NCBI RefSeq assembly: GCF_016127575.1
Contig: NZ_CP066019.1
Coordinates: 1,200,001 to 1,232,000, forward strand
Origin: Cupriavidus necator
Lineage (GTDB): Bacteria; Pseudomonadota; Gammaproteobacteria; Burkholderiales; Burkholderiaceae
Reading direction: 5' to 3'
Length of the DNA stretch: 32,000 nucleotides
Shown here: positions 8,583-26,803 of the stretch, piece after piece
Position numbering within the stretch: position 1 is the stretch's first letter
Layout: every line of letters starts with the position of its first letter
The notes under the pieces: model-generated
Database searches by the model: none
What the model was told of the DNA's origin: nothing
The model's input: the letters and a program-made list of their open reading frames with translations, nothing else
Position numbers and translations under genes: made by a program

Positions 8583-11033
8583 ATGGGTAGCCGATTACCG
8601 TTTTCCTCCCGTACCGTTACCGTATCCGGTGATGGGTTGCCGGAACTATTGGGACAGCCGCTGCTAGTATTTTCCAGGCTGTCCGGCACCGAGGGTATCA
8701 ATTCGCTGTTCGAGTATGAGCTGGAACTCAAGACGCCGGACGACCGCAATGTCCTGTACGGTCCGGCGGGCGATTTCGACCTGGAAGCCATGCAAGGCAA
8801 GGAGCTGACAGTCAGTATCGAACTGGACGGCTCCGGCAGCGGCCTGGACGGCGGCCTCGGCAGGGGCAAGCGCGAGATAACAGGGATCGTCACCGATGTG
8901 CGCGGCCCTTACCACGAAAACGAGCGCATTCGCTATCGCCTGACCTTGCGCCCCTGGTTTTGGCTCGGCACGCTCACCTCCACCTTCAAGCGGTTCCAGA
9001 ACATGAATGTCCTGGAAATCGTGGAAGTGGTGCTGAGCAGATATACATTTCCGGTCGAGCGCCGGCTTTCACTCATCGAGTATCCCAAGCGCCAGTATCA
9101 ATTGCAGGCCGGCGAGACCGACTACCAGTTCGTGCGCCGGCTGCTCGCAGAGTGGGGCCTGAATTTCCATTGGGAGCACACGAACGGCCATCACCGCATG
9201 GTGCTGACGGATGGCAATGGCGCCTTCCAGAACATCCCCAGCCCCGCGTATCACACCATCAACTGGTATCCATCCTCGGACCGGGTGGACGAAGAACACC
9301 TCCACCAATTCGAGGTACGCGATTGCCTGATTACAGGCTCGTGGGCGCACGGGGATTACGACTACAACCAGCCCCGCGCCGACCTGAATGTCTCCGTTGA
9401 CGACCCCCGCGAGACCAGCCATGCCACCTATGAACTGTACAGCTGGCCAGGCGATTACGTTCAGCCCAAGTCCGGCAATGACGCCCGCAAGGAAGGCGAC
9501 ATGCTGGCGCGCATCAATATGGAACGCCTGCGGCAACACGGCGTGCGGGTGCGCGGCCAGGGCAACGTGCGCGCAATGGCGCCGGGCCACACCTTTACGC
9601 TGAAGCGCTTCCTGCGTGCTAAGGCCAACCGCGAGTACCTGATTTTCGCTACGCGCCTGCTAATCGAGGACGTGGGCGAGTTCGCGGGTAGCGACCAGCA
9701 ATGGCGCTGCGAGGTGGAATTCGAAGCCCAGCCCACCAGCGAAATCTTCCGGCCCGAGTCGGTCAAGAAGCCTTACATCGGCGGGCATCACATCGCCAGG
9801 GTCGTCGGCCCGGCCAATCAGGAAATCTGGAGCGATGATCTGGGACGGGTGCGCTGCCAGTTTGTCTGGGATCGTTACGGTAGTTTTGACGAGAATAGCT
9901 CCTGTTGGATTCGCGTAACCGGTTTTTCATCGGGCGGTCGTTTCGGCAACACGCACCTGCCGCGCATCGGCCAGGAAGTCATTGTCATATACGAGGGCGG
10001 AGACCCGGATCGGCCAATCATCATCGGGCCTGTCAATAACCGGCTGAACCTGCCGCCGTGGCAGTTGCCCAGCCAGCATGCATTGTCCGGCTACCAGAGC
10101 AAGGAACTGTTCGGCGAAGGCCGCAACCAGACCCTCTACGACGACACGCAGGGCCAGCAGCAGGTGCAAGTCGGGTCGGACTACCAGAACAGCCTGCTGG
10201 CCCTGGGCCACATTGTCCGGGTGAGGGGTTGGGAGGGACGCAAGGACAAGCGGGGAGAAGGGTTCGAACTGCGCACCGACGCGCATGGCGCGCTGCGCGC
10301 CGCACTTGGCCTGCTTATCACCACCTTTTCGCGCCTGAACGCTGAAGGCAACGCGATGAATGTGCGGGATGTCGTCCAGTTGCTCGAACAGGCACAGGGC
10401 ATTGCCGCCACCATGGGAGAGAAGGCGACTGAAGCCCAGGCCCAGGACGGCGAACAGACCGACATTGCAAAACTGCTGGAGAAGCAGCTCGAGCAAATCC
10501 AGGGCGGAGGCGAACTGAAGGAATTTACCGCCCCCCATCTGGTATCGGCCAGCCCCGCCGGCATCGTCTCCACGGCAGCGGGTTCGACCCACATCGCCAG
10601 CGGTGGCGACACCGCACTGACCACGGGGGAACACCTGTCCGTCACCGCCGGTGGCGGCTTCTTTGCCAGCGTGCGCAAGGCGCTGCGCATGTTCGCCTAT
10701 GAGGCTGGCATGAAGCTGGTTGCAAACATGGGCGATATCGACCTGCAAGCCCTGAAGAACAATATCAATCTGCTGGCGAAGCTCAAGATCACCCTGACCG
10801 CCGACGAGATCACCATTCAGGCCAGGCAGAAACTGTTGCTGGCAGGCGGCGGCAGCTACCTGCGACTGGACGGCAACATCGAGCATGGCACCAACGGCAG
10901 GTTCACCGTCCACGCCGCCAGCAAGCTGCTGACCGGGCCTAACAGCATCCCGACGGAACTGAGCACAAAGCAGGTCTGCCTGGAATGCCTGCTCAAGGCA
11001 GCCAGGCGCAACACGGGCCTGTTGCTGCGCTGA
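8583..11033 (+). CDS. vgrG: Type VI secretion spike protein VgrG (TssI)
   Basis: 816 aa from ATG 8583 (GGAG 8 nt upstream); the track ORF begins earlier, at 8508. The N-terminus LLVFSRLSGTEGINSLFEYELELKTPD is the classical VgrG gp27-like start. The gp5 OB-fold region is ...RVTGFSSGGRFGNTHLPRIGQEVIVIYEGGDPDRPIIIG. The C-terminal part is repeat-rich and DUF2345-like. Confidence 0.95.
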   Translation: MGSRLPFSSRTVTVSGDGLPELLGQPLLVFSRLSGTEGINSLFEYELELKTPDDRNVLYGPAGDFDLEAMQGKELTVSIELDGSGSGLDGGLGRGKREITGIVTDVRGPYHENERIRYRLTLRPWFWLGTLTSTFKRFQNMNVLEIVEVVLSRYTFPVERRLSLIEYPKRQYQLQAGETDYQFVRRLLAEWGLNFHWEHTNGHHRMVLTDGNGAFQNIPSPAYHTINWYPSSDRVDEEHLHQFEVRDCLITGSWAHGDYDYNQPRADLNVSVDDPRETSHATYELYSWPGDYVQPKSGNDARKEGDMLARINMERLRQHGVRVRGQGNVRAMAPGHTFTLKRFLRAKANREYLIFATRLLIEDVGEFAGSDQQWRCEVEFEAQPTSEIFRPESVKKPYIGGHHIARVVGPANQEIWSDDLGRVRCQFVWDRYGSFDENSSCWIRVTGFSSGGRFGNTHLPRIGQEVIVIYEGGDPDRPIIIGPVNNRLNLPPWQLPSQHALSGYQSKELFGEGRNQTLYDDTQGQQQVQVGSDYQNSLLALGHIVRVRGWEGRKDKRGEGFELRTDAHGALRAALGLLITTFSRLNAEGNAMNVRDVVQLLEQAQGIAATMGEKATEAQAQDGEQTDIAKLLEKQLEQIQGGGELKEFTAPHLVSASPAGIVSTAAGSTHIASGGDTALTTGEHLSVTAGGGFFASVRKALRMFAYEAGMKLVANMGDIDLQALKNNINLLAKLKITLTADEITIQARQKLLLAGGGSYLRLDGNIEHGTNGRFTVHAASKLLTGPNSIPTELSTKQVCLECLLKAARRNTGLLLR

Positions 11034-11046
11034 CCCGAGACCGGCG

Positions 11047-11922
11047 ATGACAACCGAACCAAACACCGTCTATATCTACGCGCTCGCCGACGGCGCCCAG
11101 CACCCGCTGCTGATTGGTGACCTGATGCGCGAGGCCACCGAGCACCGTAATGTGTATGCCGGCCTTCCCGAGGAAGAAGCGGGCGACGCCTCGCTGTTCC
11201 TGGCGCACATTGCAGATGCAGGCGAACCGTGGCTTGCCAGGCTGGATGAACTGGACTTGCTCGCCCCCTGCATGACCCTGATCTGGAGCCGCATCGGGAT
11301 CGACGCGCTCGCCACGCACCTGCGGCAGTTCCTGATCGCCGACCTCGGCGACGGGCTGAACGCCATGGTGCGTTATTTCGATCCGCGCAACCTGCGCACA
11401 GTCATGACGCTGTGGGGCGAAGAGACGACGCACAAGCTGATGGAACCCATTCTCCAGTGGAAGTACCGCGGCCATGATCCCGAGTGGAAGCGACTGGATG
11501 GGCCGCTGAACGGCAATCAGTTCGAGACGACACCAGTTGCCATTGCATTCGATGAGCAGCAGGTTGATGACTTCATGGCGCACTGCGAGCCGGATCAGAT
11601 GCTGGCGGGCCTCGTTGAAGACGGCACCGTACCGGGCGATGGTCCCTACCTGCCGCGCTTCCTGGATTTCGTTGCGCGTTACAAGCGCGTGGCTGCCTGG
11701 CGGCTCATCGAGCCCGCCGACCGCCTTGGGTACTGCCAATACTCGTACCGCTATGGCGCCGACTTTGATCAAGATCCAGACGTGTACCGCGCGTTGGAAC
11801 AACGGATGCACGAGGGCGGCAGCTTCAACGCCTGCATGGCCCATGTTCCTGACTACGTGTGGAAGCGCGTGCTTGCCAGGCAGGCCGATCAACAAGCGGA
11901 GAGAAACGATGACAAGAAATAG
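11047..11922 (+). CDS. DUF4123-family T6SS effector adaptor/chaperone (Tap-1/Tec-like)
   Basis: 291 aa. Family hallmarks recalled from memory: YALADGAQHP..., ASLFLAHI, LATHLRQFLIADLGDGLNAMVRYFDPRNLRTVM. The gene lies directly downstream of vgrG after a 13-nt gap. Confidence 0.85.
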   Translation: MTTEPNTVYIYALADGAQHPLLIGDLMREATEHRNVYAGLPEEEAGDASLFLAHIADAGEPWLARLDELDLLAPCMTLIWSRIGIDALATHLRQFLIADLGDGLNAMVRYFDPRNLRTVMTLWGEETTHKLMEPILQWKYRGHDPEWKRLDGPLNGNQFETTPVAIAFDEQQVDDFMAHCEPDQMLAGLVEDGTVPGDGPYLPRFLDFVARYKRVAAWRLIEPADRLGYCQYSYRYGADFDQDPDVYRALEQRMHEGGSFNACMAHVPDYVWKRVLARQADQQAERNDDKK

Positions 11923-12526
11923 CTTGAATCGGAAGCGCGCACATCGATGGCAAGCCGCACTGGTGTTGCTGGGCGCGCTCGGTGTCCTTTCCGCATGCTC
12001 AGGCGAATCGCGGACTGACTTGGCGGCAAAAACCACGGTTGGAGCTGAGAAGGAGCACGTAAGTCCCGGCAGCGCTCGCGGTCTGAACTACTCGTCCGAT
12101 GCCATCTATAGCTATTACGTCACGGGGCCACGAGGAATGAACGGTGGCGGCGCAAACATGGGGCCTGCATACAAAGAAGGGCCTGCCGAACCTGGCGAGA
12201 TGTGTTGCGTCGGCATCCCTCAGCCATGGAAGCCCGGCACGCAACTACGCATCGAATGGGAGCGCGACCGCAAGCCGTTTGACTACAAGGACAGAAGCGG
12301 GCTGGCGGTGCTGACCGCAACAGTCACCGTGCCGGAATACGGTCCGGATACCTACGGATTCTGGGCGATATTCCTACCGGGGGATCGTGTCAAGGTGATG
12401 GTCATGGACGGCAATGCGAATGGTCACAATTCCGTCAGAACGAAGCCCGCAGATGACGACCCTTTCGTCGTTCAAGGTGTACGTGACGAGGCCCTGACCC
12501 AGCAAGCACTGAAGAGGTTCCAATGA
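11909..12526 (+). CDS. Lipoprotein, copy 1 (candidate T6SS lipase immunity protein; possibly DUF3304-like)
   Basis: ATG 11909 lies inside track ORF 11537..12526 and is preceded by GGAGA. Lipobox LGVLSAC with Cys+1. It overlaps the DUF4123 stop by 14 nt. 205 aa. The DUF3304 assignment is from memory of T6SS lipase loci and has not been verified. Confidence 0.8.
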   Translation: MTRNSLNRKRAHRWQAALVLLGALGVLSACSGESRTDLAAKTTVGAEKEHVSPGSARGLNYSSDAIYSYYVTGPRGMNGGGANMGPAYKEGPAEPGEMCCVGIPQPWKPGTQLRIEWERDRKPFDYKDRSGLAVLTATVTVPEYGPDTYGFWAIFLPGDRVKVMVMDGNANGHNSVRTKPADDDPFVVQGVRDEALTQQALKRFQ

Positions 12527-12529
12527 TGA

Positions 12530-12618
12530 GCGAGGGCGCACCTTCAACGCCTGCATAGCGGACTACGTGGGGAACCGTGTGATCGTCACGCAGGCCGATC
12601 AACAAACGGAGAAGAACG
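12530..12618 (+). pseudogene. Decayed duplicate of the last ~30 codons of the DUF4123 adaptor gene
   Basis: It aligns by eye to 11810-11908. FNACIADYVGNRVIVTQADQQTEKNDENK* matches FNACMAHVPDYVWKRVLARQADQQAERNDDKK*. There is a 1-nt loss upstream and a 9-nt gap, and no start codon. Confidence 0.6.
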
Positions 12619-13275
12619 ATGAGAACAAGTAGCTTGATGCGAAAGCGCCTTCCTTCATGGTTCGCCGCGCTGGTGTTGCTGGGCGCGCTTGGAGCCCTTT
12701 CGGCATGCTCGGGGGAATCGCGGACTGACTTGGCGGAAAAAGCCACCGCTGGAATTGAGAAGGAGCACCTATCGGCCGATACCGCCGGCGGAGCCGCCAA
12801 GGAAGAAATCTATGGGGGTGGGGTGCGCGGGCTGAACTACTCGTCAGATGCCATCTATAGCTTCAGCGTCACCGGGCCGCGGGGCATGAACGGCGGCGGC
12901 GCAAACATGGGGCCTGCATACAAAGAAGGCCCTGGCGAAGCGGGCGAGAAATGCTGTATCGGGATTCCGAAATTCTGGAAGCCAAATACGCAACTGAAGA
13001 TCAAATGGGAGCGTGACCGCAAGCCCTTCGACTACAAGGACAGAAGCGGGCTGGCAGTGCTGACCGCAACGGTCACCGTGCCGGAATACGGTCCGGATAC
13101 CTACGGATTCTGGGCGATATTCCTACCGGGGGATCGTGTCAAGGTGATGGTCATGGACGGCAATGCGAATGGTCACAATTCCGTCAGAACGAAGCCCACA
13201 GAAGACGACCCTTTCGTCGTTCAAGGTGTACGTGACGAGGCCCTGACCCAGCAAGCACTGAAGAGGTTCCAATGA
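12619..13275 (+). CDS. Lipoprotein, copy 2 (paralog of 11909-12526; candidate immunity protein)
   Basis: 218 aa, GGAGA RBS, lipobox LGALSAC. The C-terminal ~95 residues are nearly identical to copy 1. The stop TGA (13273-13275) overlaps the tle1 ATG (ATGA overlap). Confidence 0.8.
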   Translation: MRTSSLMRKRLPSWFAALVLLGALGALSACSGESRTDLAEKATAGIEKEHLSADTAGGAAKEEIYGGGVRGLNYSSDAIYSFSVTGPRGMNGGGANMGPAYKEGPGEAGEKCCIGIPKFWKPNTQLKIKWERDRKPFDYKDRSGLAVLTATVTVPEYGPDTYGFWAIFLPGDRVKVMVMDGNANGHNSVRTKPTEDDPFVVQGVRDEALTQQALKRFQ

Positions 13276-15662
13276 TGACCGCTTTCCGCCTGCCTATTGC
13301 CATGCCGGAAACGGATAAGGGTCGCCTTCCCGAGGGAAAGCGCGCCTACCAGAATGGCAAGACCACCGTGGACGATCCCCATGGCGACTGTGAACAGACA
13401 ATTCACATCAACCTGTTCTTCGATGGCACCAACAACAATGATGATGTCAGAACTCCTGCCCGCTGGCGGGATTCTACCTACAAGACGCATACCAATGTTG
13501 CGCGGTTGTTCCGGGCCTGCCCTACCCGCCCGCAGCAGGGGATCTTCAGTTCTTACATTGCGGGAGTCGGTACGCTCTTTCCCGAATTGGGCGAACACAC
13601 CTATAGCAGTAGTGGCAAGGCTTTTGCGAGCGGCTTTGCCAAACGCTGTGCTTGGGGTTACACGCGCGTGCTGAACGCCGTGTACCAAGCTATGGTTCCG
13701 GGAGACGAAAATGGTCTCATCAAAGATGACGAAGCTGCCAAGATTTGTGCGAAGCTCGACTGGAACCTGGGTTCCTCCCTACTCACTGCCAAGGAGAAGC
13801 ACCTCGGCAGCCTATACGACTCGCTGGTTCGCCAGTGCAAACGCAATCGTCTCGTCAGGAAGGCATACGTCAACGTTTTTGGCTTTTCGCGCGGCGCGGC
13901 GGGCGCCCGAGTGTTCGTCAGCAAGCTGATCAACTACTGGGCCAAGGCCGGGAAGCTGGCGGGCAAGATCGACTACGAAGTCAACTTCCTGGGGCTGTTC
14001 GATACGGTTGCGTCGGTGGGCCCGCCCGAGTCGTTTCAATCCGCCGTGGATCTGGAATACTTCGACGGGCATTTCTGGGCGGCAGGGGGCGGCGCCCTGA
14101 ACATTCCCGCCCAGGTGCGGCGGTGCGTGCATTTCTTCTCCATGCATGAACAACGCATGAGCTTCCCGCTGGATTCCATCCGGAAGGGGAAGAGCTACCC
14201 GGCAGGCGACAGCAAGCTGCTGGAAGTGCCCTACCCGGGCGTCCACTCGGACGTGGGTGGCAGCTACGCGCCGGGCGATCAGGGCAAGTCGGTCAAGGGC
14301 GAGGGCCACCGGTTGGGCAAGATTCCGCTGCACGACATGTACATCGAGGCACTGAAGGTCGGTGTGCCGCTGCGGCTGGTGGATGCCAAGAACGACGAAG
14401 ACCGGATGGATGCGAACAACATGCAGGATTTCGCCATCGACCCTGCCGTCGCCAAGGCCTTCAACGATTGGCGGGCAACCCTGCCCGCCATTGACGGCGT
14501 GGAGAAGGCCCTCGAATTTGGCCTGCGGCAAAGCCTGCAATGGCGCGCCTTGCGCGCACGCTGGCACACCGGCACCTACATTACCAACCAAGGGTTCTAC
14601 CACTATTGCGCGGAGCCGGCGAACAAGCGCGAGGACAGCAAGACTCCCCAGCAACTGCGCACTGACGTGGATAAGGCAAGGAAGGCCGATCCCGTAATCC
14701 AGAAGCTGGAACAGGACAGCATCCAGTTGAAGCTTCAGGTCCAGCAGCTCAGAGACCGCGCAATGTTTCCCCAGACGACTTCGCAGGACATGGCGGGTTT
14801 GACCAAGCGCCGAGCCCTGGAGGCCAAGATTGCCGCGAACGATGCCGCCATCGCCGCGCGGGAGAATGAGCTGATGGCGGAGGCGGTTGGCAAGAACCCG
14901 GCCGACTGCCGCCCTGGGGAAGGTGCCGATGACTTTGTCACCAATGACCGCACCGACTTGCTGGAGGCGGCTGAGGAATTCCAGTTGCTATTGGGATACC
15001 TGCACCCTGAACTTCAGCCCGGCTTGAATGTGCGGAAGGAAATGATGGCCCGGCCGGCTTTTTCACCCATCGGGGCAGCGGAACGGGTCGCCAATGGTTT
15101 CAAGTACCTGGCGATGCCCCGCGCAGAGCGTCCACGCACGGATTCGAAGCTGCTCGTTATGGTCGACGACGATATCTTGACCAAAAGCGCTGCCGTTCGC
15201 GGTTATTGGCCCATCGATGACGTATTGGTGGAACCTGCGCCGGAGATGATCCTCTACCTGAGGGCCACGACCGCTGCCAAGGCCGTGGACGACTTTGCCT
15301 TGCGTGAGAAGGCAGCCATTGAGTTGTTCGATAACTACATCCACGACAGCCGTGCCTGGTTCCGTGTGCCGAATTTCCACGAATACGCACCAGGCGGCTA
15401 CGGGTGGGCCAGGACATTCTTTGTCGGCGACAGCAAGGCAGTGCGGCACCTCGGCATGAGCGCAAAGGGCGTGTTGGACAAGGTGCAAGATACCGCTCTG
15501 GCCGTCGAGCGCGAAATCGATGCCGCCAAGGACAGGGCGATGCGGGCATTGGGCGACGCAGCAGGGCGCGCAGCGGATGCCGCCCGGGATGCAGTCATCG
15601 ATCAAGGCAGGAAGGCCATGGAAAAAGTCATCCCCTCGGGATTCCCGATGCCAAGACTGTGA
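13272..15662 (+). CDS. tle1: T6SS phospholipase effector, Tle1 family (DUF2235 alpha/beta-hydrolase domain) with long C-terminal extension
   Basis: 796 aa. DUF2235 hallmarks: IHINLFFDGTNNN, GxSxG motif VFGFSRGA (Ser206, nt 13887-13889), LGLFDTVASVG (Asp244, nt 14001-14003), PGVHSDVGGSY (His325, nt 14244-14246). GAGG RBS inside the preceding gene. Confidence 0.85.
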   Translation: MMTAFRLPIAMPETDKGRLPEGKRAYQNGKTTVDDPHGDCEQTIHINLFFDGTNNNDDVRTPARWRDSTYKTHTNVARLFRACPTRPQQGIFSSYIAGVGTLFPELGEHTYSSSGKAFASGFAKRCAWGYTRVLNAVYQAMVPGDENGLIKDDEAAKICAKLDWNLGSSLLTAKEKHLGSLYDSLVRQCKRNRLVRKAYVNVFGFSRGAAGARVFVSKLINYWAKAGKLAGKIDYEVNFLGLFDTVASVGPPESFQSAVDLEYFDGHFWAAGGGALNIPAQVRRCVHFFSMHEQRMSFPLDSIRKGKSYPAGDSKLLEVPYPGVHSDVGGSYAPGDQGKSVKGEGHRLGKIPLHDMYIEALKVGVPLRLVDAKNDEDRMDANNMQDFAIDPAVAKAFNDWRATLPAIDGVEKALEFGLRQSLQWRALRARWHTGTYITNQGFYHYCAEPANKREDSKTPQQLRTDVDKARKADPVIQKLEQDSIQLKLQVQQLRDRAMFPQTTSQDMAGLTKRRALEAKIAANDAAIAARENELMAEAVGKNPADCRPGEGADDFVTNDRTDLLEAAEEFQLLLGYLHPELQPGLNVRKEMMARPAFSPIGAAERVANGFKYLAMPRAERPRTDSKLLVMVDDDILTKSAAVRGYWPIDDVLVEPAPEMILYLRATTAAKAVDDFALREKAAIELFDNYIHDSRAWFRVPNFHEYAPGGYGWARTFFVGDSKAVRHLGMSAKGVLDKVQDTALAVEREIDAAKDRAMRALGDAAGRAADAARDAVIDQGRKAMEKVIPSGFPMPRL

Positions 15663-15725
15663 CGGACGCATGATGGCAAATGCACCGCTCTTGCCGCATC
15701 CGTCAATCCTTGAAGGAACGCCAAC

Positions 15726-17033
15726 ATGACAGCATGGCTAGACAAAGATGATCCCGCGCCGCAACGGACACGGCCGCCGAAACCAGGCTCCTCTGCCAGG
15801 CAGGCCGTAACCGGTCAGGAGACTCAGGAACCCGCCACGAAGCTTCTCCCTTCAGCCAAGACCATCGAGGTCCGCATTGCCGAGATCAACGGTGCGCGCA
15901 ATCCCCTGCTGAAAGCCGCCAGGCCGCTGCTGCGCGCACTGGCAGACATCCCGCCCAAGCTGGATAAGCGCGGTGAGGTGGAACGTCTGCGCACCCTGCT
16001 GGAGCAGGAATTGCGCACCTTCCAGGCGGTGTGCGACCGACTGAACATCGACCGCAAACACACCACCGCCGCGCACTACGCACTCTGCACCGCGCTGGAT
16101 GAGGCCGTGAGCCATACCGAGTGGGGCGGCGGCAGTGCGGCTTCGCTGGGCGCATGGCCTGGCAGCGCCCTGGCCTCGACCTTTCACCAGGACCGCGAGG
16201 GCGGCACCAAGGTGTTCCTCATCCTGGGCCGGTTGGTGGAATCGGTGGCCGAGAACATCGGCACCATCGAGGTCTACTACCACATCCTCTCGCTGGGGTT
16301 TCAGGGGCGGTATCGCGGCATGGCGGACGGTGACCAGCAACTGCACGCGATCCGGGGACGCCTGCTCGATGCGATCAGCAAGCACAACGGGCCAGTGCCC
16401 AAGGAACTGTCTTCCCACTCGCAGCCCGCCCCGCCTGGCCGCTTCCATCACCTGAGCGGCATCCCGGTCTGGATGACCTGCACAGCGGGCCTTCTGGCCG
16501 TCGCTGGCCTGGCCGGATACTACAAGTACCAGCTGATGCTCCAGGAGCGTGACGTAGTGCAACAGATCGGGGCCATTGGCAACCTGACTCCACCCCCCGC
16601 ACCGAAGGCGTTGCGCCTGGCCGAGCTGCTCAAGGACGAGATCGCGCGCGGCGTGGTAGCTGTCAGGGACGACAACCACCGCAGCACCGTAGTGTTTCGC
16701 GGCGACGACATGTTCGGCGCGGGCCGGGCCGAGGTCAATGCGAAGCTGACGCCGACGCTGAACAAAGTGGCGGGCGAAATCAATAAGTTGCAGGGCAAGG
16801 TGCAGGTGATCGGCCACAGCGACAACCAGCCCATCAAGAGCGCCCGCTACCCGTCCAACCAGGTCCTGTCCGAGGAGCGTGCCGCCATGGTCAGCGAATA
16901 CCTCGCCAGCCAGGGCGTCGCCAAGAGACGCCTCGAAGCCATCGGCAAAGGCGACACCGAGCCGTTGACGGACAACAAGACCCCCGCCGCCCGCGCGGCG
17001 AACCGGCGGGTGGAAGTGGTCGTCACACAGTAG
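15726..17033 (+). CDS. tssL: TssL/DotU-family protein, long form with C-terminal OmpA/MotB peptidoglycan-binding domain (orphan copy)
   Basis: 435 aa. DotU-like region NPLLKAARPLLRALADIP...YYHILSLGFQGRYRG. Single TM IPVWMTCTAGLLAVAGLAGYY (about residues 246-266). OmpA-like end VIGHSDNQPI...YPSNQVLSEERAAMVSEYL...NRRVEVVV. GAAGGA RBS. Confidence 0.8.
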   Translation: MTAWLDKDDPAPQRTRPPKPGSSARQAVTGQETQEPATKLLPSAKTIEVRIAEINGARNPLLKAARPLLRALADIPPKLDKRGEVERLRTLLEQELRTFQAVCDRLNIDRKHTTAAHYALCTALDEAVSHTEWGGGSAASLGAWPGSALASTFHQDREGGTKVFLILGRLVESVAENIGTIEVYYHILSLGFQGRYRGMADGDQQLHAIRGRLLDAISKHNGPVPKELSSHSQPAPPGRFHHLSGIPVWMTCTAGLLAVAGLAGYYKYQLMLQERDVVQQIGAIGNLTPPPAPKALRLAELLKDEIARGVVAVRDDNHRSTVVFRGDDMFGAGRAEVNAKLTPTLNKVAGEINKLQGKVQVIGHSDNQPIKSARYPSNQVLSEERAAMVSEYLASQGVAKRRLEAIGKGDTEPLTDNKTPAARAANRRVEVVVTQ

Positions 17034-24027: not shown

Positions 24028-25662
24028 TTACAGACGGTTGACCGAGATGCTGAAGAACCGGCGAGCCGTATTCACGCCGATCGCCACATTCAGGCCCGTG
24101 TTGCCAATCGACATGCTGATGGCCTCACTACCGCCGCTGTTGTTGGGCGTCGGGGCACGGTAGCGCAGCCCGTCGAGCGGGGTGTTCACCTTCCAGGTGT
24201 CCACCCGTCCGTCGTCGCGCTCGCGCGTGTACGTGTTTGCCTGGGCATCCACCGCGGTGACCTTGACCGTGGAGGCCGTCGTCGTGCTGATGCCATCGGC
24301 CGTGGCGGAGTTGCTGTCCACCGGAAGAATGCTCGTGTCCCAGAACGAACTGGTCGCGCCCACGGCAGGCAGCGCACGGGCGATCCGTCTGGTGGCCATC
24401 GTGAATCCGTCACCGTGGGTGAAGACGATGACCAGTTGCCCGTCGGTGCCCTTGAACGCGTAGGCCCGCTCAACACCACCGTCCTGTTCGGTGAGGTTCA
24501 GCCCGCCATCGGGGTTGAGCGTGATGGTGGGAAATTCATCCGGCAGCCATGCCGAGCACGAATCCAGGCCCGAGCAATCTGCGCCGGCGGTCACCTTGCC
24601 CGCGGCATCCAGGCTGAAGTTCACGCGCGACGCCGCGTACGGCGACGGGCCATCGCGCTCATAGCCAAGACCATTCCAGTCGCCAGCCAGGTCGGCCAGG
24701 GCCAGTGCCTGGGCAGGAATCAGCAGGGCGGGCAGGCGGTTGACCGTGCCAGCCGGAGGCAGCACCACGCTCAGGCCCGACTTGGAGACCAGCACGGTGT
24801 CGGTGCCTGCGGTGAAGCGGCAGGCTTCCGATGCGTCGGCGGTGAAGGTGGTCACGTCGGTGCCCAGCTTGAACTGCAACGTGGCGGCGTCCATTTCGCC
24901 GGCTTCTCCAATCGGCGTGCCCAGTTCCACGACGTGGTACTTGCCGGTCTTCAACCCGGCGCAGGTGGCCGCTGCCGGTTGCAGTGCGGTCTGGACTGCC
25001 GCTGCGCCGGCATTGGCAGCGACTGCTGAAGAAAGCTCAGCCAGCGTGGTCTTGGATGCCTCCAGGCGATCGCCCAACTGGTCCAGCAGCTGGTCCTGCG
25101 CATTGCCCGCGTTGGCGCCGTTGGCGGCCACCAGCGGATCCTTGACCGGGTCGATGCTGGAAAGGTCGACCACGCCCGTCAGCACCAGGCGCACGGCGCC
25201 GATGGCACTGGTTACGTTGTCGGAGGTGAGCCTGGCTTGCGCGTTCGCATCGAACTGCTCGAAGAAGGCATCGGTGTTGCCCTGTGCCAGTGAAGCGGTG
25301 ACCAGCTCGGTCAGCGGCGTGATGTTGGCCGTCGCGGTGGTGCCGGTGCCGGCTTCGACCACGGAATGCAGCGTGGTGCCGTCAGGCGCCGTGACGCTGA
25401 GCACGCAGGGACGCGTCGCGCCTTCGATGCTGATGGTGAAGCTGCCGTCCGCCGCGGTGGTGGCGGTGCCGCTGCCCGATGCGCACTTGGCCTGCACGGC
25501 GGCATTGCCCAGTGCGGCGCCAACTGCGGCGGTGCCACTGATCCTGGTGGCGGCAGGTGCCGCCGTGGTGGTGGTCGGCGCGGTCGAACCGCCATCGCCG
25601 CCTCCGCATGCAGACAGGACCGCCGTCGCCAGACCCGTCAAGAACAGTTGTTTTGTTTTCAT
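24028..25662 (-). CDS. Large lipoprotein of unknown function
   Basis: 544 aa from ATG 25662 (MKTKQLFLTGLATAVLSACGGGDGG; lipobox LSAC), followed by a Thr/Ala-rich linker. The track ORF extends to 25725. I recognise no catalytic motifs. Confidence 0.8.
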   Translation of the reverse strand: MKTKQLFLTGLATAVLSACGGGDGGSTAPTTTTAAPAATRISGTAAVGAALGNAAVQAKCASGSGTATTAADGSFTISIEGATRPCVLSVTAPDGTTLHSVVEAGTGTTATANITPLTELVTASLAQGNTDAFFEQFDANAQARLTSDNVTSAIGAVRLVLTGVVDLSSIDPVKDPLVAANGANAGNAQDQLLDQLGDRLEASKTTLAELSSAVAANAGAAAVQTALQPAAATCAGLKTGKYHVVELGTPIGEAGEMDAATLQFKLGTDVTTFTADASEACRFTAGTDTVLVSKSGLSVVLPPAGTVNRLPALLIPAQALALADLAGDWNGLGYERDGPSPYAASRVNFSLDAAGKVTAGADCSGLDSCSAWLPDEFPTITLNPDGGLNLTEQDGGVERAYAFKGTDGQLVIVFTHGDGFTMATRRIARALPAVGATSSFWDTSILPVDSNSATADGISTTTASTVKVTAVDAQANTYTRERDDGRVDTWKVNTPLDGLRYRAPTPNNSGGSEAISMSIGNTGLNVAIGVNTARRFFSISVNRL

Positions 25663-25913
25663 CCCGTTTCGCCCTGTATGGTTTTTGTTCTGGCGGAGTC
25701 CTGCGGTGGTCGATATCCGGCTCATGCAGGCCCCGCCCGCAGGGTGGCTGACCCGCCCCGCGAGGCGAGTCTGCGTGATAGGGGGGATGGGGCCAACCCG
25801 AGTTCAGGCGATTGACAAACTGTCGGGAGTGTGTGGGCAGAGGCTGCTGCGGCAACGCTGCAGGATGGCTGTCACGTGCCTGGCTGCCGTGGTTGCATTC
25901 ATTGGTCTGGCGG

Positions 25914-26161: not shown

Positions 26162-26803
26162 TCAGGCGGCCGTCGGCACAAGGCCGGGCCAGGTGGCAGT
26201 GGGCGCTGTGGTGCGGCTGCCTGCCCGGCAATCTTCCACCAGGCGCGCCGCATCGATGCCGAACCAGTTCTGCCAGCTGCGCGCCAGCGCGCTGCCGGAA
26301 CGCAGGCCGGCATGCGCCGCCAGCACGTCCAGCGAAGACACCGGGCCGGCGGCGGCCAGCGCGTGCAGGGCATGGGCGGCGCGTTGCTCGCGCAGCAGCG
26401 GGTGCAGCGCCTCGCCTTCGGCGAAGAGCCGGGCGCGCACCTGGCGGGCCGGCACCTGCCATTGCGCGGCCAGGCGCTCGACATTCCAGTCGGTATCGGG
26501 GCGGGAAAAGACCAGGCCGGCAAAGCGGCGCGACCAGGGCCTGTCGCCGGGCTTGCCGGCCAGGCGCGGGCATTCACTGTCCGGGACGGCAGTCAGGACG
26601 ATGGCGCAAGGGTGCTGCCACGTGCCGGGCAGGTCGCAGTCGAAGTGGGCAAAGGCGTGGACCACGAACGGGTCGCCGGGCCGCACCTCGCGCCGCGCAT
26701 TGGCGTCGCGCAGGCTGGCCGTGCCGTGCAGGGCTTGTACCTGCACGGCAAAGGGGAAGCGCAGGCGGGCAAAGCGGACGTGGTGACGGCTGACAAGCGG
26801 CAT
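26162..26803 (-). CDS. AraC/XylS-family transcriptional regulator (short)
   Basis: 213 aa. C-terminal double-HTH-like region WNVERLAAQWQVPARQVRARLFAEGEALHPLLREQRAAHALHAL...LDVLAAHAGLRSGSALARSWQNWFGI. Confidence 0.75.
   Translation of the reverse strand: MPLVSRHHVRFARLRFPFAVQVQALHGTASLRDANARREVRPGDPFVVHAFAHFDCDLPGTWQHPCAIVLTAVPDSECPRLAGKPGDRPWSRRFAGLVFSRPDTDWNVERLAAQWQVPARQVRARLFAEGEALHPLLREQRAAHALHALAAAGPVSSLDVLAAHAGLRSGSALARSWQNWFGIDAARLVEDCRAGSRTTAPTATWPGLVPTAA

Follow-up and report, generated by a model that had tools for sequence, protein, structure and literature searches.

Why does a gene for a membrane-complex subunit of a type VI secretion system (T6SS) stand at the end of an effector island? 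The question is raised by tssL' (positions 15726-17033, + strand) in a window of Cupriavidus necator DNA, by which we mean the whole 32,000-nt stretch analyzed. In the usual view, auxiliary islands of the T6SS contribute nothing beyond spike parts (VgrG, PAAR, Hcp), adaptors, toxins, and immunity proteins, and the main cluster alone determines a membrane complex of fixed composition. Our analysis makes it likely, although by no means certain, that the locus as a whole is explained by tssL' being a second intact long-form tssL, from a clade that forms part of the frame of such islands, whose product works as an alternative or extra TssL.

The tssL' product is identical to CAJ95928.1 of C. necator (Ralstonia eutropha) H16. 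Its parts, with residue numbers and the supporting matches or predictions, including scores from the predicted local distance difference test (pLDDT), are as follows:

15726-15899, + strand: disordered low-complexity cytoplasmic N-terminal tail, residues 1-58 (pLDDT ~30 over residues 1-42)
15900-16460, + strand: cytoplasmic DotU/TssL helical domain, residues 59-245 (Pfam DotU; PDB 4v3i)
16461-16529, + strand: single transmembrane helix, residues 246-268 (Kyte-Doolittle maximum at residues 245-264; AlphaFold2 helix)
16614-17030, + strand: periplasmic OmpA/MotB-like peptidoglycan-binding domain, residues 297-435 (TIGR03350; Foldseek 4b62)

A sequence-only reading of this DNA had described a stand-alone long-form TssL combining DotU, a transmembrane helix, and an OmpA/MotB domain, and profile searches bore this out. 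Pfam DotU (PF09850) matched residues 60-268 over profile positions 1-204 of 205 (E = 2e-56; 191 bits, cutoff 27), and Pfam OmpA (PF00691) matched residues 329-427 over its entire length (1-98 of 98; E = 1e-17). NCBIfam TIGR03349 (DotU/TssL) scored 181.8 bits (cutoff 89.95), and TIGR03350 ('TssL, long form', type_VI_ompA) scored 158 bits over residues 297-433 (cutoff 139.8). The full DotU domain is present, so the protein is not merely a generic OmpA protein. PRK08126 (NF005999), a model of the Burkholderia-type long TssL, aligned end-to-end at 523 bits, under its cutoff of 571; for comparison, the model gave 507 bits for a related island protein (P0010, subclade B below), 579 for the core TssL of H16, and 725 for the TssL of Burkholderia thailandensis. 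This near miss reflects the divergence of the island clade. TssL' also scored 100.5 bits with NF038228 (type IVB IcmH/DotU), whose cutoff is so low (50 bits) that this T6SS protein exceeds it, which accounts for the 'IcmH/DotU' name on some copies. Databases call identical or near-identical proteins 'OmpA/MotB-family outer membrane protein', 'type IVB secretion system protein IcmH/DotU', or 'TssL, long form'. We rejected a type IVB identity, as the T6SS models score far higher and the gene lies in a vgrG/Tle1 context without Dot/Icm genes; the IcmH/DotU name is misleading, and NCBI already names the protein as a long-form TssL in several strains.

Structural comparisons agreed with this assignment for both halves of the protein. 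Searches of PDB sequences matched residues 292-433 to the Pseudomonas aeruginosa TssL1 peptidoglycan anchor (4b62; E = 9e-28) and residues 59-283 to the cytoplasmic domain of Vibrio cholerae TssL (4v3i; E = 2e-20), and 4b62, the P. aeruginosa T6SS cell-wall anchor, was also the top Foldseek match (TM score 0.90, root-mean-square deviation 1.8 Å, 44% identity). In the AlphaFold2 model (mean pLDDT 75.7), residues 1-42 are disordered and are followed by a helical cytoplasmic domain, a transmembrane helix, and an alpha/beta periplasmic domain. Hydrophobicity on the Kyte-Doolittle scale peaks only once, at residues ~245-265, and the model has a long helix at residues 248-285; both suggest one membrane anchor after DotU, with the N-terminus in the cytoplasm. 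The periplasmic domain carries the motifs GHSDNQP...LSEERA...NRRVEVVV. D366 (in GHSDNQP) and R385 (in LSEERA) are invariant in our alignment of the family (alignment A1), and NRRVE is present; we take D366 and R385 to be the conserved Asp and Arg through which the GH[ST]D ... LSxxRA motif of OmpA-like domains touches peptidoglycan diaminopimelate. With these residues in place, the domain is predicted to bind peptidoglycan.

The sequence-only reading had also singled out an unusual, Pro/Gln/Lys-rich N-terminal extension of ~55 residues. A tail of that length exists and is predicted to be disordered, but its composition is Ala/Pro/Thr/Arg-rich, and core long-form TssLs of Cupriavidus, Ralstonia, Pandoraea, and Burkholderia bear variable tails of similar length and different sequence (alignment A1); we rejected the tail as a special feature because these core tails are comparable. 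The tails of subclade A, defined below, share the conserved motifs MTAWLD and AVTGQE. Phospho-threonine has a role in Agrobacterium TssL, at Thr14 (PMC3953482); this Thr14 motif is not present in the TssL' tail, and the parallel stays only a lead. Two other identities were considered and set aside. TssL' is not a TagL-type anchor, as it has a complete DotU domain and the core TssL of the genome is itself of the long form, and it is not a Tli1/DUF3304 immunity protein, as it has no DUF3304 or Tli1 match and both upstream immunity genes carry DUF3304. All features by which a T6SS TssL is recognized in sequence are found in TssL'.

The main T6SS cluster of H16 lies on chromosome 1 in the order vgrG-Tle3-..-PAAR-tssJ-tssK-tssL(DotU+OmpA)-tssM, and the tssL' island lies on chromosome 2. 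The core TssL of the main cluster (P0015, 425 amino acids) already has an OmpA domain in addition to DotU and is the closest other H16 protein to TssL'. Because this core copy sits in the chromosome-1 cluster, tssL' is a second, paralogous long-form tssL. The two proteins are 56-61% identical (53% in DotU, 78% in the periplasmic domain). Recent gene conversion between the two genes, which might have explained the 78% identity of the OmpA part, was rejected because their synonymous divergence (dS) is saturated, at 1.1-2.0 overall and 1.1 in the OmpA domain. Compared with the core long-form TssLs of T6SS-i4b (from H16 chromosome 1, B. thailandensis, and P. aeruginosa TssL1), TssL' has the same domain order, tail included; however, those proteins are encoded between tssK and tssM, whereas tssL' stands at the 3' end of a vgrG island on another replicon, forms a separate clade, falls below the PRK08126 cutoff, and is under somewhat relaxed constraint.

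Positions 5726-27033 of the window match the H16 chromosome 2 sequence (AM260480.1:1280293-1301600) with 0 mismatches over 21,308 nt. On this finished chromosome, the 10 kb on each side of tssL' outside the island holds metabolic or regulatory genes, the 3' neighbor of tssL' is a convergent transporter of the major facilitator superfamily, and neither tssJ, tssK, nor tssM lies within 10 kb on either side of tssL'. The remaining window genes outside the island are also metabolic or regulatory, and the GC content is 57-63% in the island versus 67-71% in its flanks. The sequence-only reading had seen no tssK or tssM in the window; neither genes nor remnants of tssJ, tssK, tssM, or PAAR were found in the 32 kb. 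The suspicion that a complete T6SS core cluster was merely cut here, by the window boundary or by assembly, has next to no chance of being correct: nothing was found in its favor, and we rejected it on the strength of the finished-chromosome identity, the flanking genes, the lack of core-gene remnants in the window, and the location of the main cluster on chromosome 1.

The island reads vgrG-DUF4123-Tli1x2-Tle1-tssL', with all genes on one strand, overlapping or separated by short gaps, and tssL' last, as the sequence-only reading had it:

8583-11033, + strand: vgrG', the 5' frame gene, 816 amino acids in the public record (Pfam Phage_GPD, Phage_base_V, T6SS_Vgr, DUF2345)
11047-11922, + strand: DUF4123 adaptor, a Tla1-like chaperone for Tle1 (Pfam DUF4123, E = 3e-24)
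11909-12526, + strand: Tli1-type immunity lipoprotein, copy 1 (Pfam DUF3304)
12619-13275, + strand: Tli1-type immunity lipoprotein, copy 2 (Pfam DUF3304, E = 7e-23)
13272-15662, + strand: Tle1-family phospholipase effector (DUF2235), 796 amino acids (Pfam T6SS_Tle1-like_cat, E = 4e-32)
15712-15717, + strand: GAAGGA ribosome-binding site, 8 nt before the tssL' ATG and within the 63-nt gap between Tle1 and tssL'
15726-17033, + strand: tssL' (product TssL2), island-borne long-form TssL, 435 amino acids; the 3' frame gene and end of the operon

The Tle1 stop codon (15660-15662) precedes the tssL' ATG (15726) by 63 nt, and the tssL' stop codon is at 17031-17033; the gap and the GAAGGA site had been read from the sequence correctly. 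No promoter- or terminator-like site was seen on the + strand of the gap, where consensus scans are uninformative, as island-wide they gave counts at or below the shuffled expectation.

The TssL' protein is one of a family of island-borne copies. In a set of 120 homologs, it groups with P0001-P0006 (subclade A) and with P0008-P0011, P0019, and P0080 (subclade B). In bootstrapped, distance-based neighbor-joining trees that included core TssLs from Cupriavidus, Ralstonia, Pandoraea, Burkholderia sensu lato, and Comamonadaceae, the island copies formed a clade of their own, with subclades A and B monophyletic at bootstrap values of 100 for the full-length protein, 76 for DotU only, and 83 for the periplasmic part only. 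All named members come from Cupriavidus, to which the clade is apparently restricted. By the periplasmic domain, the island clade joins the core TssLs of Cupriavidus and Ralstonia (bootstrap 88); DotU is about equally distant from every core group, with bootstrap values of 38 versus 34 for the candidate sister groups. A Burkholderia origin, suggested by a shared GGGSAASLGAW-type insertion, is not supported by these groupings, and we claim no foreign donor despite the low GC content of the island because the periplasmic part groups with Cupriavidus and Ralstonia and the DotU sister group lacks support.

Genomic contexts were compared at ten loci, representing seven clade proteins and strain variants (two of the seven, the query and P0002, fall together with strain variants in one 90% cluster):

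Window, C. necator H16: vgrG-DUF4123-Tli1x2-Tle1-tssL'
L013, Cupriavidus TMH.W2: vgrG-DUF4123-Tli1x3-Tle1-tssL'
L014, Cupriavidus NPDC089707: vgrG-DUF4123-Tli1x7 (interrupted by a short Tle1 fragment)-Tle1-tssL'
L096, metagenome: Tle1-tssL', with tssL' the last gene
L093, Cupriavidus SK-4: vgrG-DUF4123-DUF3304-Tle1 fragment-small membrane protein-tssL'
L008, C. basilensis: Tle1 fragment-YiaAB-tssL'-PAAR
L010 and L094, C. basilensis: vgrG-Reprolysin-like protein of 668 amino acids-324 amino acids-364 amino acids-tssL'-PAAR-299 amino acids (L094 starts one open reading frame upstream of tssL', with its 5' part outside view)
L095, metagenome: vgrG-Reprolysin-like protein-283 amino acids-322 amino acids-tssL'
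L011 (L012 is the same contig in a second assembly), Cupriavidus 2MCAB6-like: vgrG-652 amino acids-291 amino acids-291 amino acids-tssL'-PAAR

In all ten, tssL' belongs to a vgrG island that lacks tssK and tssM, never adjoins either gene, and closes the island on its 3' side, either in final position or with only PAAR beyond it (plus one small open reading frame in subclade-B islands). The islands occupy different chromosomal sites. Most other long-form tssL genes in species-representative genomes lie between tssK and tssM; the rest have PAAR or a cargo cassette on the 5' side, lie where a contig stops, or come from L017 and L018, which are degraded or atypical. A scan of a genome collection with two narrow peptide patterns returned mostly Variovorax core clusters and only two island-clade members, and a search of a plasmid collection returned only core clusters or distant homologs, with no further island copies, although pursuing its matches led to the B. 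multivorans and B. gladioli contexts described below. In Ralstonia mojiangensis (L018 8730-11176), the tssL match after tssK ends at query residue 400, and no tssM was detected in the 10 kb downstream; this main cluster may be disrupted.

Within the clade, the two ends of the island are conserved and the middle is exchanged. Between subclades A and B, island VgrGs share 64-87% of their residues in the stretch 1-600, a figure that falls to 27-47% over the last ~200 residues (identity to the main-cluster VgrG is about 40%), and the cargo is a Tle1 lipase in one subclade and a protein with a Reprolysin-like metallopeptidase match in the other. The VgrG core and tssL' are thus a conserved frame in which the VgrG C-terminus, adaptor, immunity, and effector block is swapped. 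Because the sister islands hold metallopeptidase-like cargo instead of Tle1, tssL' tracks the spike gene and not the lipase; it is also intact in L093 and L008, where Tle1 has been cut down to a C-terminal fragment. The pairing of DotU-OmpA genes with DUF2235 effectors that the sequence-only reading had pointed to therefore recurs among the Tle1 islands of Cupriavidus but does not hold for their sister islands. The same reading had offered a second periplasmic protector against the lipase as one explanation. We rejected a lipase-specific protector because the sister islands carry a different effector; in addition, DotU is as constrained as the periplasmic domain, and two Tli1 genes are already present.

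Constraint on tssL' was estimated from pairwise ratios of nonsynonymous to synonymous divergence (dN/dS; Nei-Gojobori). Against H16 tssL', dN/dS was 0.34 for TMH.W2 (dS 0.13), 0.19 for NPDC089707 (dS 0.55), 0.22 for the C. basilensis copy at L008 (dS 0.60), and 0.22 for subclade B (dS 1.6). Among tssL' orthologs at dS up to 0.6, the values were 0.14-0.29 for the DotU domain and 0.15-0.33 for the OmpA domain, and reference values were 0.12-0.19 for Tle1 in the same genome pairs and 0.10-0.17 for pairs of core TssLs. The gene is thus under purifying selection in both its cytoplasmic and its periplasmic parts. The 68 alignment columns that are at least 95% conserved in 46 core long-form TssLs are kept at 66 positions in subclade A and at 60 in subclade B; the changes at conserved columns are conservative, and clade-specific substitutions are H117, H220, P234, L341, A425, and V431. 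The open reading frame is full length in nine of the ten contexts. To judge from these comparisons, the island arrangement looks selected.

The association of tssL' with cargo has an ordinary evolutionary explanation, since cargo cassettes often sit directly 5' of tssL in main clusters, and the view that the usual cargo-island model does not account for this gene must be softened to that extent. The main cluster of Pseudacidovorax intermedius (L031) reads tssK, then vgrG-DUF4123-DUF3304x4-Tle1, then tssL-tssM; that of Burkholderia multivorans (L099) reads vgrG-Tli1x7-Tle1-DUF4123-PAAR-tssL-tssM; and the order PAAR-tssL-tssM occurs in Glaciimonas, Sapientia, and one Variovorax metagenome-assembled genome. 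Like the H16 island, L031 and L099 have vgrG, DUF4123, a DUF3304 array, and Tle1 followed by a long-form tssL; in these main clusters, however, tssM comes next (with tssK also on the 5' side in L031) and the tssL is the sole core copy, whereas the H16 segment stands alone in a genome with a separate core tssL. At Xenophilus aerolatus L017 (6107-14318), an N-terminal fragment of tssK is fused ahead of vgrG, DUF4123, and an intact long tssL; after tssL come a tssM fragment of ~150 residues, an open reading frame of 325 amino acids, and tssA, and no effector follows DUF4123. This locus looks like a decaying T6SS cluster, intermediate toward a stand-alone island. The simplest course of events would start from i4b-type main clusters like those of other Burkholderiales, in which cassettes with vgrG or PAAR cargo are inserted just 5' of tssL. 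A segment running from vgrG to tssL would have separated from one of them through partial duplication, transfer, or decay of a second cluster and would have persisted in Cupriavidus as a movable island frame. We infer such an origin for tssL' as a broken-off piece of a main cluster. To this extent, the suggestion that it is a degenerate remnant of a lost cluster holds, but 'degenerate' is unsupported because the open reading frames are intact, dN/dS is 0.19-0.34, and 66 of the 68 conserved positions are kept.

We conclude that tssL' is probably a working alternative TssL and not a lipase-specific protector or a pseudogene. TssL' would be produced together with VgrG' and the cargo, insert in the inner membrane by its single transmembrane helix, and bind peptidoglycan by its OmpA-like domain. 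It would then enter the TssJ-TssL-TssM membrane complex encoded on chromosome 1, replacing the core subunit (TssL1) or mixed with it, and act there as an alternative or extra anchor and baseplate-docking subunit. The cytoplasmic partners of TssL are TssM, TssK, and TssE, and because its cytoplasmic domain stays constrained, TssL' may be expected to contact them still. Of the explanations offered by the sequence-only reading, a cassette-specific membrane-complex or peptidoglycan-anchoring subunit fares best, although the subunit follows the VgrG frame and not the cargo. A more specific version, in which TssL' replaces TssL1 in some complexes and its diverged DotU domain favors baseplates that carry the VgrG' spike, would account for the lasting association of vgrG' with tssL' despite exchange of the intervening cargo, but we regard such a specificity subunit as unlikely.

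Several points weigh against a working subunit. This role is drawn from sequence comparison, and neither the H16 gene (locus tag about H16_B1137 or B1138) nor any orphan or auxiliary tssL copy turned up in searches of the literature and supplements. TssL' may be redundant because the H16 core TssL is intact and already peptidoglycan-binding, and its compatibility with chromosome-1 TssM, TssK, and TssE is unproven because its DotU domain is only 53% identical to that of TssL1. Constraint on tssL' is ~1.5-2 times weaker than on core TssLs or the neighboring Tle1, and in P0080 (L011/L012, 7311-8543) a frameshift, present in two independent ENA assemblies and one NCBI genome, replaces the last ~40 OmpA residues, so some island copies are being lost. 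The phylogeny is distance-based and leaves the DotU-only sister group unsettled, the narrow-pattern survey leaves the spread of the clade beyond Cupriavidus unsettled, and H16 was seen at the loci described, which leaves room for a second set of membrane-complex genes in its genome.

Some of these points would be expected if tssL' were a functionless hitch-hiker, carried off with the vgrG-to-tssL segment, redundant with TssL1, and slowly decaying, with its intactness reflecting recent transfer. The adjacency of cassettes and tssL in main clusters provides a purely historical reason for the linkage, the Xenophilus locus shows that such fragments decay, and the intact core TssL, the elevated dN/dS relative to core TssLs, and the lost OmpA end of P0080 fit as well. 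We nevertheless judge this explanation improbable: the clade is old, with dS ~1.6 between subclades and yet dN/dS ~0.2, full-length reading frames and nearly all family-conserved positions have been retained, and tssL' has stayed intact beside an already truncated Tle1 and through a change of cargo type. The conserved ends of the island might instead act at the level of DNA, with the vgrG core and tssL' serving as homology arms that let islands and main clusters exchange cargo by homologous recombination and the protein being secondary. VgrG identity does drop after ~residue 600, the cargo between the conserved flanks is wholly different, main clusters bracket cargo by vgrG and tssL in the same way, and the lower dS of tssL' between H16 and TMH.W2 (0.13 versus 0.25-0.27 for its neighbors) hints at separate recombination histories. 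Homology arms, however, need no open frame, low dN/dS, or functional residues; the H16 core tssL is preceded by tssK and not by cargo, so H16 has no matching landing site; and tssL' and core tssL DNA are too diverged for efficient recombination (dS 1.1-2.0). This role, which would be compatible with protein function, appears very unlikely as the explanation of the locus.

A new function is the remaining alternative. TssL' could protect the envelope against incoming effectors, influence the assembly of TssL1 in a regulatory or dominant-negative way, or substitute for a second DotU-TM-OmpA gene (TM, transmembrane helix) that is found directly after tssM in the main clusters of C. oxalaticus, Ralstonia, B. 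multivorans, and B. gladioli (L098 15182-16390; L015 and L016 ~15000-16150; L099 14412-15620; L101 14097-15392) and is absent after tssM in the H16 main cluster (L005). In line with such a change, tssL' is placed after immunity and effector genes, has the few clade-specific substitutions listed above, and encodes a DotU domain about equally far from that of every core group. Neofunctionalization of this kind is nonetheless quite unlikely, as the gene occurs with lipase and metallopeptidase cargo and hence is not effector-specific, a purely periplasmic role leaves the equal constraint on cytoplasmic DotU unexplained, and nearly all TssL-conserved residues are retained. The tssM-adjacent paralog shares the domain order of TssL' but lies inside the main cluster and not in a cargo island; because it is only ~28% identical to TssL', it is not an ortholog. 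It reaches neither the DotU nor the long-form cutoff, often bears the name 'icmH' or 'OmpA', and is probably the accessory 'ompA'/TagN-type gene that PMC11481896 and PMC6653060 describe for i4b clusters. Its distribution shows that extra TssL-like DotU-OmpA genes beside one T6SS are common in Burkholderiaceae main clusters.

The cargo genes of the islands also deserve description. In H16, the DUF4123 adaptor scored 68 bits with the NCBIfam Tla1 model, under its cutoff of 200, Tli1 copy 2 scored 62.6 bits with Tli1a_fam, under its cutoff of 110, and Tle1 shows an additional partial match to the Pfam Tle1-like C-terminal domain. The two Tli1 copies are 80% identical to each other, and between them (window 12534-12629) the 3' end of the DUF4123 adaptor gene has left a remnant of 35 residues that matches adaptor residues 257-291 at 57% identity; from the position of this remnant, we conclude that the Tli1 gene was doubled by a tandem duplication that took in the end of the adaptor. 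Seven Tli1/DUF3304 copies are present both at L014 2021-7082 (Cupriavidus sp. NPDC089707) and at B. multivorans L099 549-5419, and immunity arrays in this vgrG-Tle1 cassette type expand readily. At L008 8271-10004 and L093 8681-9997, in two Cupriavidus species, only a C-terminal Tle1 fragment is left, with a small membrane protein (YiaAB in L008) before tssL'. In subclade B (L010 5960-9995 and 11299-12484; L095 6020-9878), a protein of ~650-670 amino acids has a weak Reprolysin-type match, two open reading frames (about 283-364 amino acids) without Pfam matches precede tssL', and in L010 PAAR and an open reading frame of 299 amino acids follow it; by sequence, these genes are a possible uncharacterized set of T6SS effector and immunity genes. 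Between H16 and TMH.W2 (L013 10001-11305), the dS of tssL' is half that of vgrG, DUF4123, and Tle1, suggesting that the island's 3' end has had a recombination history of its own. Elsewhere in the window, open reading frames of 565 amino acids (24028-25725, - strand) and 213 amino acids (26162-26803, - strand) have no Pfam family on record; the former has a lipoprotein-like N-terminus and Thr/Ala-rich repeats, and both appear unrelated to the T6SS island.

How does the island compare with known systems? TagL (SciZ), which Aschtgen et al. in 2010 reportedly described as an accessory T6SS peptidoglycan anchor, resembles TssL' in being an OmpA-like anchor encoded apart from the tssJLM core; however, TagL is without DotU, and its partner is a short-form TssL devoid of any peptidoglycan-binding domain, whereas TssL' is complete and the H16 core TssL is self-anchored. 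Within the Ralstonia solanacearum complex, 25 auxiliary (aux) types of vgrG clusters are given in PMC11481896, where the combination of Tle1/DUF2235 with DUF4123 and DUF3304 is among those described; for aux clusters, the main text of this pangenome atlas names toxins, immunity proteins, and adaptors but no gene of the membrane complex. The H16 island is typical of such clusters, which sometimes also carry hcp or PAAR, in all but tssL'. Our literature searches found no report of auxiliary vgrG islands that constantly include a tssL paralog. The long-form TssL family is already known, and what appears to be new here is a tssL paralog as a constant member of vgrG islands.

A selected tssL' clade as the downstream part of the island frame suggests that the composition of the T6SS membrane complex may vary with the cargo island that is expressed. 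If the specificity-subunit version were true, one T6SS would be re-programmed in modular fashion by a membrane-complex paralog that travels with the spike gene, and T6SS cargo selection would gain a further, new level. The other possibility is that segments from vgrG to tssL are the natural unit by which cargo enters and leaves main clusters. If tssL' is merely redundant, the present result is a useful note on annotation and evolution and no more. C. necator H16 is genetically tractable, which makes the question of tssL' directly testable, and either of the two broader meanings bears on how T6SS arsenals evolve and how their cargo is selected.

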